Part shown: positions 7,600 to 39,430 of the stretch, one piece after another
How positions within the stretch are numbered: the stretch's first letter is position 1
Layout: each line of letters opens with the position of its first letter
Source of the DNA: Torpedo marmorata
Lineage: Eukaryota
Length of the DNA stretch: 64,000 bases
Reading direction: 5' to 3'
Assembly (NCBI GenBank): GCA_977017645.1
Contig: OZ360227.1
Span: 102,734,001 to 102,798,000, forward strand
The notes under the pieces: generated by a model
What the model was told of the DNA's origin: nothing
The model's input: only the letters and a program-made list of their open reading frames with translations
Database searches by the model: none
Translations under genes and position numbers: made by a program

Positions 7600-8650
7600 C
7601 AGACAAAAAATTGCTGGAGGAACTCAGCAGGTCAGACAATATCCATGGGTACAAATGGTCGGTCAACTTTTCAGGTCTGAACCCTTTATCAAGTCTAAGA
7701 TTAAATCAGCAAAATTGCATACATAAAGGAAGAAAGGAGCAGGGGGAGGGTGTAAAGGTTCAAACTAGTGTTTTGACTCTTAGTTAATTAGTTCTGTCCG
7801 AGATTATCTCAGACAGAAGGCCTGGGAGTGGAGAGACAGGTTGAGGGAGAAACCATTAGAAGAGGGGAAGAAAAGTTAAATAGAAAAACATAAAGTAAGT
7901 ACAGGAGTAGCTAAAGGAAAGATGAAACAGTGGAGTCAGATATGCGTGGGAGCTACCTAAAATTAGAAAAATCATTGTTTATGCTGATAGGATAAAGGCT
8001 GACCAGGAGGAATATCACAAGATTACAAGATCACAAGATATAGGAGCAGAAGTAGGCCCATTGGCCCATCGAGTCTGCTTCGCCATTCTAATCATGAGCT
8101 GATCCATCCACTCACTCAGCCCCACTCCCCGGCTTTCTCCCCGCAACCCTTGATGCCCTGACTGTTCAAATACCTGTCAATCTCTGCCTTAAATACATCC
8201 AACAACCTTGCTTCCACAGCCACCTGTGGCAACAAGTTCCACAGACTCACGACCCTCTGACTAAAGAAATTTTTCCGCATCTCTGTTTTAAATTGACGCT
8301 CTTTTATCCTGAAATTATGCCCTCTTGTCCTAGAATCCCCAACCATGGGAAACATCCTTGCCACATCTACTCTGTCCAGGCCTTTCAGCATTCAAAATGC
8401 CTCTATGAGGTCCCCCCTCATCCTTCCGTACTCCAACAAGTACAGTCCAAGAGCCAACAATCGTTCCTCATATACTAACCCTTTCATTCCTGGTATCATT
8501 CTAGTAAATTTTCTCTAAATTCTCTCCAATGCCAGCACGTCTTTTCTCAAATACAGCACCCAAAACTGTACACTGTACTCCAAGTGAGATCTCACCAGTG
8601 CAATATGATGAGTTGTTCCTCTAGTTTACATTTGGCCTCACCCTGACAAA
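7600..8650 (-). mobile_element. Degraded Penelope-like 3' fragment, split by a CR1 insertion
   Basis: It shares TGCTGGAGGAACTCAGCAGGTC and the GGAATATGA..TTGTTCCTC segment with the Penelope copies at 17.7 kb and 20.6 kb. Confidence 0.65.
8016..8601 (-). mobile_element. CR1-clade LINE 3' fragment
   Basis: Minus ORF KGLDRVD...SRTRGHNFRIK...FFSQRVVSLWNLLP...FKAEIDRYL is the CR1 ORF2 C-terminus. It has a (TCTTGTGA)n-like microsatellite tail and an AATAT duplication at 8011-8015 and 8602-8606. Confidence 0.9.
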
Positions 8651-10020: not shown

Positions 10021-11952
10021 CACAAAAATGAGGTCTGAGGATGGGCCACCAGATACTGGAGAAATCAGGTGGGGTATTTGCAGTGGGGAGGGTCTCCTCT
10101 CCTACCTGTCTCCTCATTCTACCACTCCCATCTTCATTTGTCCAGTGTTTTATTCCCTCCACAGCCTTCCTTTCCTCTCTAGGTTTCACACCATCCTGAC
10201 TTCAATATGTATTACCATTCTTTTATTGACACTAAGTCTAAATCCTAAGAACTCCTGCTCCAGGAGTAGAATGGAAATACCTTCACCAGAACTGCCAAGG
10301 TCCAAGAAAATAACTCACTGCCATCTTCCCAGGGGTAATATGGATACAATATAAATGCTGGCTTTGCTAGCAACACCTACATCACACATAATCATTAAAA
10401 AATAAAGAGATTAATTTATGTAGTGCATTTAAGCACTACAGGATGATTTTTTATCATTAAAATGATTGCAATGATTTGTAAATTTATAGCAAACATGATG
10501 AGTGCAGAAAAAGATTATTAATTGCTAATTTCTGTGCACTTTGTGTGCTTTTACACTATACACAAATGGGTGATGTTAGTCAGCATGCAGCACCCAATTG
10601 TGAAACTCTGAAACAGAATCAAGATTTGAATGCAGGAGATATGAGGATATGTATTTAACACTGCATTGACCATGCAACCATGCATAGAAAGGCAGGTCTG
10701 AATAGCAGGGGAAAGACTTGTACCAGAGCTGTTTAATTACTTTATGATTTGTTGGTGAATGACTTGGAAAATACTCATTACATTAAATTGGGCTAAAAGC
10801 TGCTGCTGGATGTCTTTTTCAGTGTTTCAGAGAAAGGTAGGCTAAACAATGAGTTTGCATTGCTGCATGATACAGTAGCCTTATTGGAGGAGGAGAGCCA
10901 GGGACAAGACCTAATTGGCAAAGGAGACTATGGAATGAGAGCAATTGAGCACTAGCTAGCATGGGCTTTCTCTCAAGAATTGTCTGAGAAGATTGCTCCT
11001 ACTTCCAATTGTTTGAGGATCAAAAGTAATAGAATAAATCATAAATGGCAGATCTGTTGCCTTCTGCAGGCAGAGCTCAGGCTATGCTTTTGCTGCTCCA
11101 CCTGCAGAGGTGATTGCCATCACAACCCCTCCCCAGGTTATGAACACCCGATTTACGGATACCCGGACACATAAACGAGCTGCAACAGTCAGGGGCTGGG
11201 TCAAGTTGAGCAGAGCTGGGAGCGCTGAGCAGACTTACTGCTCACTCACTGGATCAGTGAGGCCACCTGATGACCACTCTTTCATGCCTCCTGTCACAGT
11301 TGAATCTCTCCCAAACACTGTTTCTGTTCATTTACAACTTATAAAAGATTCAGGTTGCAAACAGTTTCAGGAACGGAACTCTTACATGACCTCAAGAGTG
11401 GGCCAGAAGTGTCAGAAGCTTCAAATGACCCAGTGAGGGCCATTCAACCATCTCTAAAACTCATGCCAGGGTTTCAAAAATGTCCTCAACCGGCGCAGAG
11501 CCACCAAACAATTCTTTCCAATTGCCGCAAATGCAAAGATGCAAAATATGTTTTAATTTTGCGCATGTGACGACAGTCCAGAAATCAATGAACAAAGCTT
11601 CACCCAATTCAGCACAAAGCAAACAATTGCACCCACAACCCCAAGAACCTCTCAAAATTTGCTCTTTGGTCCAACATTGGGTATGTTTTTCCATTTAGGT
11701 GGTAGCAACTCATGAGGAGTGTCACAAGGCAAGGCATCAGCAAGAAGCACCACAAAAAGCCAAGGACACTTATCACTTGAATAATGTAATATTATCCATG
11801 GTGGAACCTATTCTGTATTGACATTGGAAAATGTACTTCACTCCGCCTGTGTGCTCATTTATTTACTATTTAAGAGATGCTTCTTACCATACAAACAGCA
11901 GCAATATCAGAATTCCCTCACACAACTGCCAAATGATGAGATAACCACTCCT

Positions 11953-12094
11953 TTGAAGAAGGGCTCAAGCCCGAAACGTCGGTTATGTATTTCTTCCTTT
12001 GCTACATAAAGGACACTGTTTGACCTGCTGAGTTCTCCAGCTTTTGTGTTTTTTACTCTAACCACGGTGTCTACAGATTTTCGTGTTTACTTCT
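11953..12094 (+). mobile_element. 142-bp Penelope 3'-tail insertion beginning at a hammerhead-like core
   Basis: Near-identical to the reverse complement of 20551-20692. A 14-bp TSD AGATAACCACTCCT is at 11939-11952 and 12095-12108. Confidence 0.9.
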
Positions 12095-12440
12095 AGATAA
12101 CCACTCCTCATCATCCTCAATGGTAAATAAGGATGAACAATAAATCCAGATTGCTCAGCAACAGCCAACAATTATAAGTGATAATGGACAAAGAAAAACC
12201 ACCCAGATCCCCACTGTGACATTGTTCCCACCTCTCCATTACTTATCATCTGAGTGTTCTTCAGCATGAACCATTTCAGGCAAATCAACATCCAACCAAT
12301 ACAGTTGGTCAACGGACATCCAGATGCTTTACCTGACTGCCTGTCTCATGCATGCCTTTGATGGTTCTACTATTTCCACAAAGTGACTCCAAATAGCTGC
12401 AAGCAAGCTGCTGCAGTTACTATAGTTTGCAGATAGCTAT

Positions 12441-12657
12441 GGGGGCACCATGGTTAGTACAGCACCAGCGACCCGGGTTCAAATCCATCGTTGTCTGTAC
12501 ATTCTCCCCATGTCCGCATGAATTCCCTCTGGGTGCTCTGGTTTCCTCACAAATTGCAAAGATGTACGGAGTTATAGGTTAATTGGTCACATAGGTGTAT
12601 TTGGGCAGCACAGGCGGGAGGGGCCTGTTATCATGCTGTACATGTTAATTAAATAAA
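12441..12657 (+). mobile_element. V-SINE/HE1-like SINE, older copy
   Basis: B box GGTTCAAATCC, V-domain-like GGGTGCTCTGGTTTCCTC and the GGGCCTGTTATCATGCTGTA tail. Confidence 0.75.
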
Positions 12658-17677: not shown

Positions 17678-19250
17678 GAGAGAAACATGAAAGTTTGCAG
17701 CCGTTGTGATTGTAGTCAAAACCCAGAAATGCTGGAGGAACTCAGCTCGTCTTGCAGCGTCCATAGGAAGTAAATATATATAACTGACGTTTTGGGCCTG
17801 AGCCTTTCTTCAAGGTATGTGAAAAAATACAGGCGTCTGAATTAAAGACTGGGTAAAGAAAGGGGGAAGTATGGGGGGGAAGTACAGACCAACAGATAAA
17901 ATGTGTTAATTGGATATGATAAGAGGAAAGGTGAGAATTGATTGTGGCTCTGTGAAAGGAAACAGAGGGAAATAGGAAGATAGAGAGTGAGAGACAGAGC
18001 TAAAGGAAAGGAGACAGGGGGAAGAGGCTAAGGGAGGGGAGTATCTAACAGAAACTGGAGAAGTCGAATGTTAATGCCATCCAATTGGAGGATGCCCAGA
18101 CGGAATATGAAGTGTTGTTCCTCCAATTTGCGTGTGGTCTCAGCCTGGCAGTGCATGAGACTATGGACAGACATGTCAGCAAGAGAATGGGGCAGGGAAT
18201 TGAAATGGGTGGCCACTGGGAGATCCACGCAATTGCGGCGGACAGAGCTGAGGTGCTCAATGAAGCAATCTCCCAGTCTGCGTCCAGTCTTTCCGATGTA
18301 GACCACAGCGGTAGCACCAGATGCAGTAGATGATCGCTGCAAATTCACAAGTGTTGCTTCACTTGGAAGGACTGCATGGGGCCCCCAATGGTAGTGAGGG
18401 AGGAGGTGTGGGCGCAAGTGAAGCATCTCCTGTGGTCACAGAGGTAGCTGCCAAGGGGGCGATTGGTGGGGAGGGAGGAGTGGACGAGGGAGTCACAGAG
18501 AGAGCAGTCCCTGCAGAAGGAGGAGAGGGGAGGAGAGGGGAATATGCGTCTGGTGGTGGGATCATGTAGTAGGTGGCGGAAATGACAGAAGATGCAGAGG
18601 CTGGTGGGGTGGTAGGTGAGGACAAGGGGAATCCTGTCATTGTTGTGTGTAGGGGTGGAGGGGGCAAGGGCAGATGTGCGGGCAGTGGAGGATATACGGG
18701 TGATGGCCATGTTGATGGTGGTAGAGGGGAAGCCACATTGTTTGAAGAAGAAGTACATCTCTAATGATCTGGCATGGAAGACCTCGTCCTGGGAGCAGAT
18801 GCAATGGGGATGGAGGAATTGAGAGAAAGGAATGGAATCCTTACAGGGGACAGAGTGTGAAGAGGTGTAGCGAGGTAGCTGTGGGAGTTGGTGGGTTTGT
18901 AGAAGATGTCTGTCTAGAGTTTGTCTCCCGAGATGGAGACAGAGAGAGATTAGGAAAAAAGAGTGTTGCTAGAGATGGACCAAGTCAATTTGAGGTCAGG
19001 ATGGAAGTTGGCAGCAAAGTGGATGAAGTTGACGAGCTCATCATGGGTGCATGAGGCAGCACCAAAGTAGTCATCGATGTAGCAGAGGAAGAGCTTGAAG
19101 GGTCTTGCCTGTGTAGGCTTGTAGCATGGATTGCTCCACGTTGCCAATGAAAAGGCAGGCATAGCTTAGGCCCATGCGGGTAACCATGGCTACCCCTTTG
19201 ACCTGGAGAAAGTGGGCTGAGTCAAAGGAGAAGTTATTGAGGGTGAGGAG
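17678..19250 (-). mobile_element. Penelope-like element, degraded (RT C-terminus, GIY-YIG endonuclease, 3' tail)
   Basis: Minus frames give LFLCYIDDYFG, NDRIPLVLTYHP and VYIGKTGRRLGDCFIEHL...RKLEEQHFIFRLG. Collinear with 20551-22100. Confidence 0.9.
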
Positions 19251-19251
19251 A

Positions 19252-19575
19252 AGATTCTTAGGGATAGATTTATCCTCATTTAGAAAAGCATGGGCTTATT
19301 AGGGATAGTCTGCATGACTGTGCAGGCTGTTCTGTCTCACAAATTTGATTCTGTTTTTTTGACAAAGCCAAGATGATTGGTGAGGGTCAGTCAGTGGATA
19401 TTGTTTACATGGACTTTAGTAAAGCATTTGATAAGTAGGTCATGGTAAGCTGGTCCATAAGATTAAGTCACATCGGGATCCACAATGAGTTGGGTAAGTT
19501 GGATACAAAATTGGCTTGTTCATAGAAGACTGAGGGTAGAGGTGGAGGGGAGTTTCTCCAACTAGAGGCTGTGCA
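19252..19575 (+). mobile_element. CR1 RT internal fragment
   Basis: Reads ..CLTNL.., VDIVYMDFSKAFDK and WIQNWL...LRVEVEG. Confidence 0.75.
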
Positions 19576-20550: not shown

Positions 20551-22836
20551 AAGTAAAACACAAAAATCTGTAGACACCGTGGTTGAAGTTAAAAACACAA
20601 ATGCTGGAGAAACTCAGCAGGTCAAACAGTGTATTTTATGTTGCAAAGGTAGAAATACATAACCGATGTTTCGGGCTTGAGCCCTTCATCAAAGTATGAG
20701 AAAATGCCGGCAGGCGTCCGAACAAAAGAGGGGGGGAAGGGGGGAGGTGGCAAAGGCAGGAGATGATAGGTGGAGAAAGGAGGGAGGAGACAGAAGCAAA
20801 GAGGGGGAGGAGGGATGGCTGGGTGGGTGGAAAAAAACAGGAAGGACAGGTGAGGGGGGAGGGGAAGGAAAAGACAAGCAGGTTTAGTGGAAAGCAGAAA
20901 AGTCAATGTTAATGCCATCTGGCTGGAGAGTGCCCAGACGGAAAATGAGATGTTGTTCCTCCAATTTGCGGGTAGTCTGGGTGGGATAGTACATAAGGCC
21001 ATGGACAGACATGTGAGTGTGGGAGTGTGACTCGGAGTTGAAATGGCTGGCTACTGGGAGGTCGCTGTTGTTGCGGACGGAGAGGAGGTGCTCAGCAAAG
21101 CGATCTCCTAATCTACGACCGGTCTCTCCGATGTAGAGAAAGCCACAAAGGGAGCACCGGATGCAGTAAATAAGTTCTCTGGATGTACAAGTGAAGTGTA
21201 GTTTCACTTGAAAGGCCTGTTTGGGGCCCCGGACCGTGGTGAGGGGGGAGGTGTGGGCGCAGGTGTTGCACCTCCTGCAGGCACAGGGGAAGGGGCCGGG
21301 GGTGCGATGGGTGGGGAGGGATGAGTGCACGAGGGAATCATGGAGGGAGCGGTCCCTGCAGAAGGCCGAGTAGGGAGGAGAAGGAAAAATGTGTCTGATG
21401 GTGGGATCCTGTAGTAAGTGCCGGAAATTCCGGCGGATAATGTGTTGGATTCGGAGGCTGGTGGGGTGGTAGGTGAGGATGAGGGGGATTCTATGTTTGT
21501 TGCATCTGGGGGCAGAGGGGGCCAGGGCAGATGAGCGGGAAATGGAGGAGATGCGGGTAAGGGCTGAGTTGATGGTGGTGGAGGGGAAGCCACGTTTGTG
21601 GAAGAAAGCAGACATTTCAGAAGATCTGGACTGGAAGACCTCATCTTGGGAACAGATGCGGCGGAGACAGAGAAATTGAGAGAAGGGGATGTAATCCTTG
21701 CAGGGGACAGGGTGTGAGGAAGTGTAGTCCAGATAATTGTGGGAGTTGGAGGGTTTGTAGTAAATGTCGGTGGAAAGCTTGTCTCCTGAGATGGAGACAG
21801 AGAGATCCAGGAAGGGGAGAGTGTTATCAGAAATGGACCAGATGAATTTGAGATCGGGGTGGAAGTTGGATGCGAAGTGGATGAAGTTGACAAGCTCATC
21901 GCGGGTGCATGAGGCAGCCCCGATGTAGTCGTTGATATAACGGAGGAAGAGATGAGGGGTCTTGCCTGTGTAGGCTTGCAGCATGGATTGCTCCACAAAG
22001 CCCACAAACAGGCAGGCGTAGCTGGGACCCATGCGGGTACCCATGGCTACTCCTTTGATTTGGAGGAAGTGGGATGAGTTAAAGGAGAAGTTATTGAGAA
22101 TGAGGACAAGTTCTGCCAGGCGGAGGAGGGTGGTGGTAGAGGGAGAACTGGTCGGGTCTTTGGTCCAGGAAGAAGCGAAGTGCTTTCAGAACTTCTGTGT
22201 GAGGGATAGAGGTATAAAGGGATTGGACATCCATGGTGAAGATGATGCAGTCCGGTTCAGGGAATCTGAAGTCATTGAGGAGATGGAGGGCATGTGAGGT
22301 GTCGCGGATGTAGGTGGGGAGGGATTGGACCTGGGAGAAAAGATGGAGTCAAGGTAAGATGAAACTAGTTTGGTGGGGCAGGAGCAGGCAGAAACAATGG
22401 GTCTGCCCTGATGGTTGGGTTTGTGTATCTTGGGTAGAAGGTAGAAACGGGCAGTGCAGGGGTGGGAGAGAATGAAGTTGGTGGCCGTGGAGGGGAGGTG
22501 ACCGAAGGTGATGAGGTCGGAGATGGTGTTGGAGACAGTGGCTTGATGTGCAGTGGTGGGGTCCTGTGGGAGGGGTCGGTAGGAGGAGGTGTCTGAGAGC
22601 TGTCGACTGGCCTCGGCAAGGTAGAGGTTAGTGTGCCAGACCATAACCGCACCGCACTTGTCTGCGGGTTTGATGGTGAGGTTGGGATTGTTGTGGAGAG
22701 AGTGGAGGGCAGAGCGTTCTGAGGTATTTCTAGGGTAGAAGGTAGAAACGGGCAGTGCGGAGGTATTTCTTGGGTAGAAGGTAGAAACGGGCACTGCTGT
22801 TTGACTCTTAGTTTCAGTATTTTGTGTTTTTACTTT
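20551..22836 (-). mobile_element. Penelope-like retroelement, the most intact copy here (RT plus GIY-YIG endonuclease), with a rearranged 5' end
   Basis: ORF 22186-22794 has IKPADK...FYLLPKIHKP...GRPIVS. ORF 20884-22044 has MGTRMGPSYA, YIND (catalytic YIDD mutated), FLDL, a Cys cluster and LIYCIRC...YIGETGR (GIY-YIG). There is a frameshift between them. Confidence 0.95.
20658..20698 (-). ncRNA. Minimal hammerhead ribozyme-like motif in the Penelope 3' region
   Basis: The minus strand reads CAUACU-UUGAUGA-A-GGGC UCAA GCCC-GAAACAUC-GGUUAUG: a core-like UUGAUGA/GAAA, a stem II and a plausible stem I. Confidence 0.55.
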
Positions 22837-24054: not shown

Positions 24055-24515
24055 CTTTCAGGTGGATTAAAAATATCTTTGTACTATTTGGAGGAGGCTG
24101 GGATCTTTCTCTTGGTACACAAGCCAACATTCATCCATTAGTCAATACCTAAAACAGATAACCTAGTCATTAATTTCAGTAAAAACACAATGCTGGAGAA
24201 ACTCAGCAGGTGTCCTTTATATAGCAAAGATAAAGATACACAACCGATGCTTCGGGCCCAGCCCTTCACCAAGAATCTTTATCTTTGCTATACAAAGGAC
24301 ACTATTTGACCTGCTCAGTTTCTCCAGCATTGTGTTTTTACTTCAACCACGGTGTCCACATACTTTGGTGTTTCACTTCTTTTCATTAATTTCACTGCTG
24401 TTTAGTGCTACTTGACTGCCATGTTACATAGGTAGATATACCGGTACTCCAAACGTGCTTTGCTGGCTATAAAGTGCTATAAAGATCATGCAGATATCAT
24501 AAAAGGTGCAAGTCC
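24055..24515 (+). mobile_element. Deu-SINE-like 3' half, interrupted by a Penelope-derived insert
   Basis: TCAGGTGGA..AAAA...TACTATTTGGAGGAG...GCCAACATTCATCC...AAAACAGAT...GTCATTA|...GCTGTTT...GGCTATAAAG...TGCAAGTCCTTC. Confidence 0.55.
24179..24382. mobile_element. Penelope-tail insert with internal inversion (foldback)
   Basis: The left arm ~24179-24237 is the reverse complement of the right arm ~24275-24341, apart from a small deletion. A 12-bp TSD TCATTAATTTCA is at 24167-24178 and 24383-24394. Confidence 0.88.
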
Positions 24516-37270: not shown

Positions 37271-39430
37271 CTTTGCTGAGAATCTGAACGAGTACATCGA
37301 GGCTATCACACACTTTATCAAAACAGCTGTGGATGAGTGTGTCCCCACCAAATCATTCAGGGTGTTCCCCAACTAGAAGCCCTGGATAAACAGTGAAATC
37401 CGGCACCTGCTGAGAGCCAGATCGCAGGCATTTAAGTCCGGAGATCCAGATCAGTACAGCAGGAGCAGCTATGACCTCCGGAAGGCTATCTCCCAGGCGA
37501 AGTGGAGATTCCAGATGAAAATGGAAACAATAAGGGACACCCAACTGCTGTGGCAGGGTCTGAATGCCATAACCTGCTACAATACCAAATCCGGTAAAGT
37601 AGCTGACGGCAAAGCTTCTCTCCTAGAGGAACTCAACGCCTTCTACGCCCGATTTGACGACAGTAACAGCGAAGAACCACCCCTCCGCACACCCACGTCC
37701 CATGACGATCCCACCCTGTCCATACCTGAGGATGAAGTGCGTGCTGACTTCAGGAGAGTGAATCCGAGGAAAGCATCTGGCCCGGATGGAGTATCTGGCC
37801 AAGTATTAAAGATCTGTGCTGATCAACCTACTAAGGTATTCACGGATATCTTCAATATCTCATTTCAGCAGGGCGTGGTACCCACCTGTTTCAAACAGGC
37901 GTCAATCATACCAGTGCCCAAGAAGAGTGCAGTAACCTGCCTTAATGACTATCGACCAGTAGCACTTACATCAACAGTGATGAAGTGTTTTGAAAGGCTG
38001 GTGATGAAGCATATCAGCTCCTGTCTGAGCGGTAACATGGATACGTTCCAGTTCGCCTATCGTAGAAACAGGTCAACGGTGGATGCCATCTCACTGGCTC
38101 TACACAAATCCCTGGAACACCTGGACAGCAAAGATGCATACATCAGGATGCTCTTTATTGACTACAGTTCGGCATTTAACACCATCATCCCCTCAAAACT
38201 GATCAGCAAACTTCAAGACCTGGGAGTTAACACCCCACTGCGTAATTGGATCATGGATTTCCTCACATCCAGACCACAATCAGTGAAGATTGGTAAGAAG
38301 TAAAAAACACAAATGCTGGAGAAACTCAGCAGGTCAAACAGTGTCTTTTATGTAGCAAAGGTAGAAAGATTGGTAAGAACCTCTCCTCCACAATCTCCAT
38401 CAGTACCGGAGCATCACAGGGCTGTGTTCTTAGCCCCCTGCTCCACTCACTTTACACCTACGACTGTGTAGCTCTGTATGACTATAACACCATCTACAAA
38501 TTTGCCGTCGATACCACGGTAGTAGGTTGTATAAAGGAAGGGGATGAGTCAGCATACAGGATGGAGATTGAAAACTTGGCTGAATGGTGCACCAACAACA
38601 ACCTTGCACTCAATGTCACCAACACTAAGGAGCTGATTGTTGACTTCAGGAAAGCCAGAGGTATACAATCCAGTGATCATTGGGGGATCAGAGCTGGAGA
38701 ATATGAGCAAATTTAGGTTCTTGGGAGTCACTATCTCGGAGGATCTTTCCTGGACCCAACGCACCAATGGCATCGTGAAGAAAGCACGTCAGCGCCTCTG
38801 CTTCCTCAGGAGTTTGCAGAGGTTTGGTATGTCACCAGAAACCCTGGCAAATTTCTACAGATGTGTGGTGGAAAGTATGCTGACCGGCTGCATCACAGTC
38901 TGGTATGGGAACACCAATACCCCTGAGCGTAAAGCCCTCCAAAAGGTAGTGGACACAGCCCAGAACATTACTGGCAAAACCCTCCCCACTATTGAGTACA
39001 TCTACAGGGAACGCTGCCGTCGGAGGGCAGCAGTAATCATCAAAGACCCACACCACCCAGCGCACGCTCTGTTCTCGCTGCTGCCATCAGGAGAGAGGTA
39101 CAGGTGCCACAACACTCACACCACCAGGTTTAGGAACAGCTGCTACCCCTCTACCATCAAAATCCTCAACGACAAAGTCAAATCAGAGACTCATTTAAGG
39201 ACTCTTGCTCGTGCACTTTATTGATTTTTCTTTGCCCTCTCTGTATTGCAGTCAGTTTCATTCATTACCTGTTAGCAGTTCTTTTGATTGTTTACATGTT
39301 TACACTGTGTACAGTTTACGTTTTGCACTACCAATTAGTGGTAATTCTGCTGCGCCCTCAGGAAAAAAGTATCTCAGGGTTGTATGTGACGTCATGTATA
39401 TACTCTGACAATAAATCTGATAAATCTGAA
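37271..39430 (+). mobile_element. Younger Rex1/Babar LINE with a near-complete RT region, 5'-truncated
   Basis: ORFs KASGPDGV...LNDYRPVALTSTVMKCFERLV...FIDYSSAFNTI and FLGVTISEDLSW...KARQRL...FYRCVVES. It ends in an (AAATCTG)n tail. Confidence 0.93.
38300..38365 (-). mobile_element. 66-bp Penelope tail fragment inserted into the Rex1 RT ORF
   Basis: Matches 20588-20655. A 14-bp TSD AAGATTGGTAAGAA is at 38286-38299 and 38366-38379. Confidence 0.9.

Follow-up and report, generated by a model that had tools for sequence, protein, structure and literature searches.

In a 64-kb stretch of the Torpedo marmorata genome (hereafter the window), a 142-bp insert between two copies of a target site duplication (TSD) carries a minimal hammerhead ribozyme core and the tail of a Penelope-like element (PLE). 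The locus raises the question of whether such tail-only copies constitute a short family of non-autonomous elements, akin to retrozymes or SINEs and mobilised by a Penelope element, as the initial annotation suggested, or are truncated copies of a longer element, and of why a truncated copy should end at this point.

The insert and its parent element

Element positions are counted from U3 of the hammerhead core (window 11953) as +1, with the preceding base as 0 and the predicted cut after +28; the features are collected in Table 1. The two TSD copies are identical over 14 bp, as first read, and exact direct repeats of at least 14 nt at a spacing of 100-250 occur only twice in the window, this TSD being one of the two. 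The insert had been taken to start exactly at TTGAAGA-A-GGGC TCAA GCCC-GAAACGTC (11953-11980); the sequence is as described, but the start is not base-exact. Alignment to the element begins at 11951, the closing CT of the TSD being the element's own bases -1 and 0, and the 5' junction is therefore ambiguous by 2 nt. TSD calls of at least 10 nt in our sample centre on 13-14 bp (15/22), pointing to a fairly fixed stagger. A search for an empty-site paralogue of the insert target found none.

Three further observations concern the surroundings of the insert. An 8-bp inverted repeat, ATGATGAG / CTCATCAT, flanks its target. Within the TSD, ATAACC (11941-11946) is the exact complement of GGTTAT in the 3' strand of stem I (11981-11986), and the two pair in the predicted fold, 6 nt from the core; since other TSDs generally lack such complementarity, the match is likely due to chance. 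A SINE-like repeat lies at approximately 12440-12600, which we take to resemble HE1/HER1 of sharks and rays. Six further related pieces (E 1e-5 or better) are present in the 64-kb window.

Table 1. Coordinates of the insert, its parts and related copies in the window.
Feature	Position	Strand	Basis
TSD, left copy (14 bp, AGATAACCACTCCT)	11939-11952	+	exact repeat; closing CT (2 nt) shared with the element as microhomology
142-bp insert, 5'-truncated Neptune-type Penelope-like element: hammerhead core and tailed 3' end	11953-12094	+	alignment to L222 3' pLTR
Minimal type I hammerhead core: U3-UGAAGA, extra A, stem II, GAAA, ACGU palindrome	11953-11980	+	read from sequence; architecture as described in PMC4209133
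Stem II hairpin GGGC-UCAA-GCCC	11961-11972	+	present in all three folds computed
ACGU palindrome of core	11976-11979	+	sequence
Predicted cleavage site	after C at 11980	+	sequence prediction
Stem I 3' strand GGTTATG	11981-11987	+	native partner CATACT absent in insert save final CT
Optional tail of ~37 nt separating two 3'-end classes	12058-12094	+	bimodal 3' ends; continues in L222 and L135
TSD, right copy	12095-12108	+	exact 14-bp match to left copy
Diverged older copy from a related lineage: decayed ORF, U3 hammerhead, tail	17683-19258	-	similarity search
Longer 5'-truncated copy of the insert's family: partial RT and GIY-YIG (open frame 20884-22185); tail; hammerhead whose stem I is intact	20551-22797	-	93% amino acid identity to L222 ORF
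Short inverted (head-to-head) insertion from an older subfamily; its arms join near the hammerhead	24181-24380	.	similarity search
Tail-only copy, 77 bp, without hammerhead; starts at +38, short 3' class, 14-bp TSD	38291-38367	-	similarity search

The insert had been annotated as a Penelope-like tail carrying a minimal hammerhead, and both the architecture and the identification of the parent element bear this out. It aligns over 143 nt, at 99.3% identity and with one mismatch, to the 3' pLTR of the unit-length element L222, which belongs to the same subfamily. L222 and a second element, L135, are partial tandems that expose the unit, of 4089 bp in L222. The 845-residue frame of L222 joins a reverse transcriptase (RT) to an endonuclease (EN) of the GIY-YIG type, placed C-terminally, in one frame, as expected of an EN+ PLE (RVT_1, E 3e-6; GIY-YIG, E 3e-4, both just under the Pfam curated cut-offs), with a DKG motif and a CX4CxxC linker (CARRRCNTC) between RT and EN. 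A CX2-5CxxC linker at this position is given as a mark of Neptune and Nematis (PMC8557442). As judged from sequence, the insert is the 3' end of an abundant autonomous EN+ PLE of Neptune type, the linker mark being common to Neptune and Nematis. The DKG RT, the CX4CxxC linker and the GIY-YIG domain with its inner CxxC all match the accounts of these elements consulted (PMC8557442; PMC3846280), as do the pLTR partial tandems, the inverted 5'-truncated arms, the optional tail of 30-40 bp and the heavy 5' truncation found here. Inversion junctions within 250 nt end 57 of 197 sampled arms.

The element is numerous: in the 6.2-Gb genome the core pattern (29 nt, read from position 4) has 56,944 matches, the tail anchor 126,022, the diagnostic tail of the insert itself 3,167 and the tail-to-ORF junction 2,045. 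The 3' ends are bimodal, at approximately +100-113 and +137-150, and in unit-length L222 and L135 the tail sequence continues into the 5' portion of the unit that follows. These two classes agree with the 30-40-bp tail and with the two internal initiation sites described in PMC11167929. The 5' part of the unit (L222:4441-5620; L135:620-1800) contains a further open frame, upstream, that includes a tandem repeat of 57 bp. It lies in a different frame from the RT in both elements, which may reflect a frameshift, an intron or a second ORF, and it has no Pfam match.

The hammerhead core and its fold

The U in place of C3, noted initially as a feature of this copy, is present but is the state of the whole family: C3 is found in 226 genome matches, as against the 56,944 for the core read from position 4. 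In the intact element, too, the 3-8 pair is not Watson-Crick, and U3 stands opposite G8 as a wobble in nearly all copies. The ACGU palindrome is kept in the insert, as annotated. PLE hammerhead dimers are reportedly the subject of work by Lunse et al., which may describe U3 variants. The core otherwise resembles the minimal PLE hammerheads of PMC4209133 in being type I, in the extra base before stem II, in G10.1-C11.1, in the palindromic 15.2-16.2 and in occurring mostly as single motifs within truncated copies. Those hammerheads have C3-G8 or U3-A8 cores, and no U3-G8 family appears in the sections of PMC4209133 and PMC3088659 consulted, whereas the present family has the U3-G8 wobble and the insert lacks its stem I partner.

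Covariation of stems I and II, named in the initial annotation as a test, is seen in one stem and not in the other. In 19 rows hand-picked from the insert family and older lineages, which represent few lineage events, the stem I pair is C-G in nine, U-A in nine and U-G in one, switching from C-G to U-A between lineages; selection of the older rows relied solely on the stem I 3' strand, and a matching TC is present on the 5' strand in 14 of 20 such loci. The second stem I pair is A-U in seven rows and G-C in three, with eight unpaired. Stem II is 96% paired and shows no two-sided change, and the other core bases are invariant across the 19 rows. This pattern supports conservation of the hammerhead fold.

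The loss of the native 5' strand of stem I, also annotated, holds for CATAC, which is missing from the insert; two pairs nevertheless survive through the CT microhomology, so that stem I is incomplete rather than absent. With only two stem I pairs and no partner hammerhead nearby, the insert is likely, by prediction, to be unable to cleave itself. In the intact element, stem II has a pair probability of 0.99-1.0 and is the only part that folds reliably. The predicted hammerhead fold of the intact monomer has an energy of -8.4 kcal/mol versus -16.0 kcal/mol for the ground state, where an upstream GCCGGC forms pairs that span the cut site (L222:8337-8342 with 8380-8385); this pairing, in the modelled fold, could keep the ribozyme off. 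The upstream motif reads GCCGAC in older subfamilies. Cofolding of two core RNAs did not yield a double hammerhead, folding z-scores are unremarkable (-0.28 to -0.88), and a search against Rfam detected a hammerhead in neither the window nor the intact pLTR.

Two variants of the core were seen along the way. In the short copy L193 the core is tandemly duplicated (~46 nt), giving two cores in one stub. Several old C3-type copies (among L361-L380) have a pyrimidine tract and CAG just before stem I, resembling a 3' splice site, and in D. virilis the end of the Penelope intron maps to helix I (PMC4209133). A 3' splice site at the hammerhead edge, suggested by the CAG of the old C3 lineages, was rejected, as the insert's family has no AG there.

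Truncations accumulate at the 5' edge of the hammerhead

Truncation points were collected from arms anchored at +63, independently of the hammerhead. Contig C1 supplied its first 100 matches, and 98 more were selected by an arbitrary flank dinucleotide, giving 197 arms (one shared). The whole collection of loci comprises 352 raw matches, or 307 once duplicates and matches at locus edges are removed, and all samples derive from contig C1 save for 14 of the 20 old-lineage loci. The 5' breakpoints are not uniform, in line with the initial annotation's doubt that such copies are random truncations, and pile up at the 5' edge of the core. Within a 20-nt interval, +9 to -10, which was picked after inspection of the data, 30 of 171 arms at risk end, a rate of 9.6 per 1000 nt versus 1.3 for -61 to -1000 (approximately 7-fold); truncation hazard is generally higher early in the cDNA, at 2-4 per 1000 nt near the tail. 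The two halves of the sample agree (16/86 and 14/86).

The 30 arms comprise 18 inversion junctions, which are biased by the palindromes of the hammerhead, 11 simple junctions and one deletion, and as four insertions are counted twice they represent 26 insertions. The simple junctions, for part of which TSDs were found, end in the interval at 3.5 per 1000 nt against a background of 0.77. A scan test on simple junctions that allows for the choice of window gives p 0.002 against a uniform distribution and p 0.03 against a fitted exponential. The insert's own subfamily has the same hotspot (9/15; scan test p 0.004, with one segmental duplicate and the window copy excluded), and among the older C3 lineages 10 of 20 copies have no element sequence upstream of -12.

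Both 3' classes carry the peak (14/75 arms with the short 3' end, 16/96 with the long), so that the hotspot tracks sequence and not cDNA length; a fixed cDNA length was rejected as its cause on this ground. Inversions behave in a correlated manner, 15 of 27 hotspot inversions having both arms in the hotspot. A strict fold-back of one inverted arm on the other is unsupported, as either arm can be the longer.

Copies that read through the upstream hammerhead

In a partial tandem an identical hammerhead lies upstream, and copies that extend through it provide an internal comparison. From the first 100 copies with a tail-to-ORF junction, 95 were read and two duplicates removed, leaving 93. Their 5' ends are spread from +146 to beyond -580 at approximately 2 per 1000 nt; the common 5' end near -110 of the first two unit-length examples was dropped as a feature in the light of these 93 copies. 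Only 2 of 63 read-through copies at risk stop at the upstream hammerhead, versus 30/171 at the first (Fisher p 0.004), and when the element sequence downstream reaches 1.2 kb or more, the count is 0 of 51 (Fisher p 0.0003 versus 30/171). For simple junctions alone the contrast between the first and the upstream hammerhead (11/171 vs 0/51) reaches p 0.07, inversions being rarer among read-through copies. The hotspot is likely restricted to the tail-proximal hammerhead, the identical upstream one being without a peak.

The upstream cut site is passed by 51 of 56 long read-through copies at risk at +62. Taken with the 0 of 51 above, this indicates that long copies were made from RNA that had not been cut at the upstream hammerhead and did not begin there. 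At the first hammerhead, 4 of 197 arms end in +26 to +32, none of them by a simple junction, and together these observations led us to reject ends defined by the cut site.

Alternative origins of the hotspot

An RNA start at the hammerhead edge would produce a similar pile-up: a promoter in the pLTR would start short RNAs near -4, and priming at the tail would convert them into 140-nt run-off copies. TCATACT near -4 presumably fits the initiator consensus YYANWYY. The simple hotspot junctions of the insert's own subfamily all lie at -4 or downstream, but simple junctions overall are flat over -9 to +9, with at most two per position and without a single peak. In inverted insertions the ends of the two arms tend to coincide, as run-off would have it, yet RNAs from many dead 3' pLTRs would give arms with common private alleles, and across 19 inverted hotspot insertions no rare allele is common to both arms while 17 are arm-specific. 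A start site is placed within the pLTRs of Penelope and Chlamys (PMC8557442); the read-through copies described above do not begin at the corresponding place. We regard an RNA start as an unlikely origin of the hotspot.

We consider still less probable an intrinsic pause at the stem II hairpin and the AT-rich run that follows, combined with microhomology at palindromes, an account in which bound protein plays no part; the upstream hammerhead would then be passed because the late RT is more processive or because the template is unfolded, for example on a second pass round a circle. The reliable folding of stem II is in keeping with such a pause, but the ends fall beyond the hairpin and not at its entry. 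Hazard drops with cDNA length, and a poorly processive early RT could feel a plain sequence pause; the hotspot is nonetheless alike for the two 3' classes, which are 37 nt apart, and hazard in the upstream pLTR (~2 per 1000 nt) is no lower than elsewhere, yet peakless. Symmetric inversion junctions do sit on palindromes outside the hotspot as well (-19/-19, -33/-33, 17/17, 32/32), as microhomology of this kind would predict.

Relationship of short and long copies

Short copies are far commoner than uniform truncation predicts, and extrapolation of the simple edge junctions to all tail anchors (11/197 x 126,022) gives approximately 7,000 simple edge copies, numbers that could suggest a family in its own right. 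For 19 of 21 short copies, however, no other short copy is closer than the closest long one. Unit-length elements bear the same diagnostic bases as the short copies, which occur in every subfamily, and each simple junction has its own flank, with no exact junction or private alleles shared; the fixed 5' end and separate diagnostic-allele lineage of a SINE-like family are thus not seen. Rare alleles number 0.45 per hotspot copy and 0.50 per long copy. This lack of an allele excess, together with the absence of alleles common to both arms, indicates that the templates were master-like and not dead stubs.

Non-LTR retrozymes of animals resemble the insert in being short, PLE-related, hammerhead-bearing and non-coding, but as described (PMC7229834; bioRxiv 10.64898/2026.07.22.740005) they are tandem, with a complete hammerhead in each unit and circular expression. 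The insert is a single stub between TSDs, its stem I is disrupted and it belongs to no separate lineage; there is no tandem array at its locus, and hotspot ends fall away from the cut site, unlike those of retrozyme monomers.

One pair of loci shows that remobilisation can happen. L027 and L028 (contig C1, ~1.976 and 2.063 Mb) lie 87 kb apart and contain one and the same short composite, in which two head-to-head arms are accompanied by a foreign spacer of 16 nt, but their TSDs differ. Here a stub, or RNA derived from it, has inserted two times, a rare event; the composite is limited to two copies in the genome. The junction shared by L039 and L062 was rejected as a further case, as these loci share flank sequence too. 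The short non-autonomous family proposed at the outset is largely refuted and, in our judgement, highly improbable: by sequence relationships there is no separate short lineage, and annotation of stubs of this kind as SINEs or retrozymes should be avoided.

Proposed mechanism and implications

We hold with high confidence, as a joint statement, that the insert has the identity given above, that the hotspot exists and is restricted to the tail-proximal hammerhead, and that the short copies have no separate lineage. It is probable that the insert is a 5'-truncated copy ending in a truncation hotspot, with element protein bound there as a barrier the likely cause; for the barrier itself, a protein-bound structure at the hammerhead beside the priming tail, we would put the chances at about even.

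The in vitro system of the Anolis element Poseidon (Frangieh et al. 2024, PMC11167929) offers a framework. In the published account initiation is internal, at two sites in the tail, and the dominant substrate is uncut RNA; insertion does not need cleavage, the hammerhead cleaves only with protein added, and both strands are nicked and extended. The present element shares the two 3'-end classes bounding the tail and the uncut template, and priming on both strands would give its inverted arms; Poseidon belongs to a different clade from the Neptune-type element of the insert.

In the proposed mechanism, the RT-endonuclease protein would make a staggered cut of ~14 bp, and reverse transcription would start internally on the RNA, at either of two sites in the tail ~37 nt apart, with an uncut template of longer than unit length. 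In roughly one arm in six, synthesis would end just beyond the first hammerhead. Protein bound at the tail and the hammerhead may stall the RT at the bound structure, or may shield the RNA up to that edge, where 5' decay of the template would halt; the data fit both. The cDNA end would then be joined through short microhomology, such as the CT of the insert. The resulting stub, without ORF, stem I partner or neighbouring hammerhead, is a predicted dead end that would neither cut nor spread.

Much of this is already known: the element type, the hammerhead, the tail and truncated single motifs have all been described (PMC4209133, PMC8557442, PMC3846280). Truncation of EN+ PLEs is described in the passages of PMC8557442 and PMC3846280 consulted without a hotspot at the hammerhead edge, and a full-text literature search, judged on titles and abstract openings, found no truncation hotspot at PLE hammerheads. 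The function of the hammerhead in PLEs is called unclear in PMC8557442. Our results raise the tentative possibility that in these vertebrate Penelope elements the hammerhead serves mainly as a landmark on the RNA, bound by protein next to the priming tail, and not as a cutter; the family with its fixed U3-G8 wobble would then have reached more than 100,000 copies from uncut templates of longer than unit length, and the hotspot would be the footprint of the complex at the first hammerhead only.

The insert itself is ordinary; the population pattern to which it belongs is real and testable. Tens of thousands of genomic junctions constitute an in vivo record of the insertion reaction, in which simple ends are absent from the cut site, the upstream hammerhead is read through, and a stop is seen only at the hammerhead beside the priming tail. 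This junction pattern can be put to a direct test in the existing purified-protein assay.
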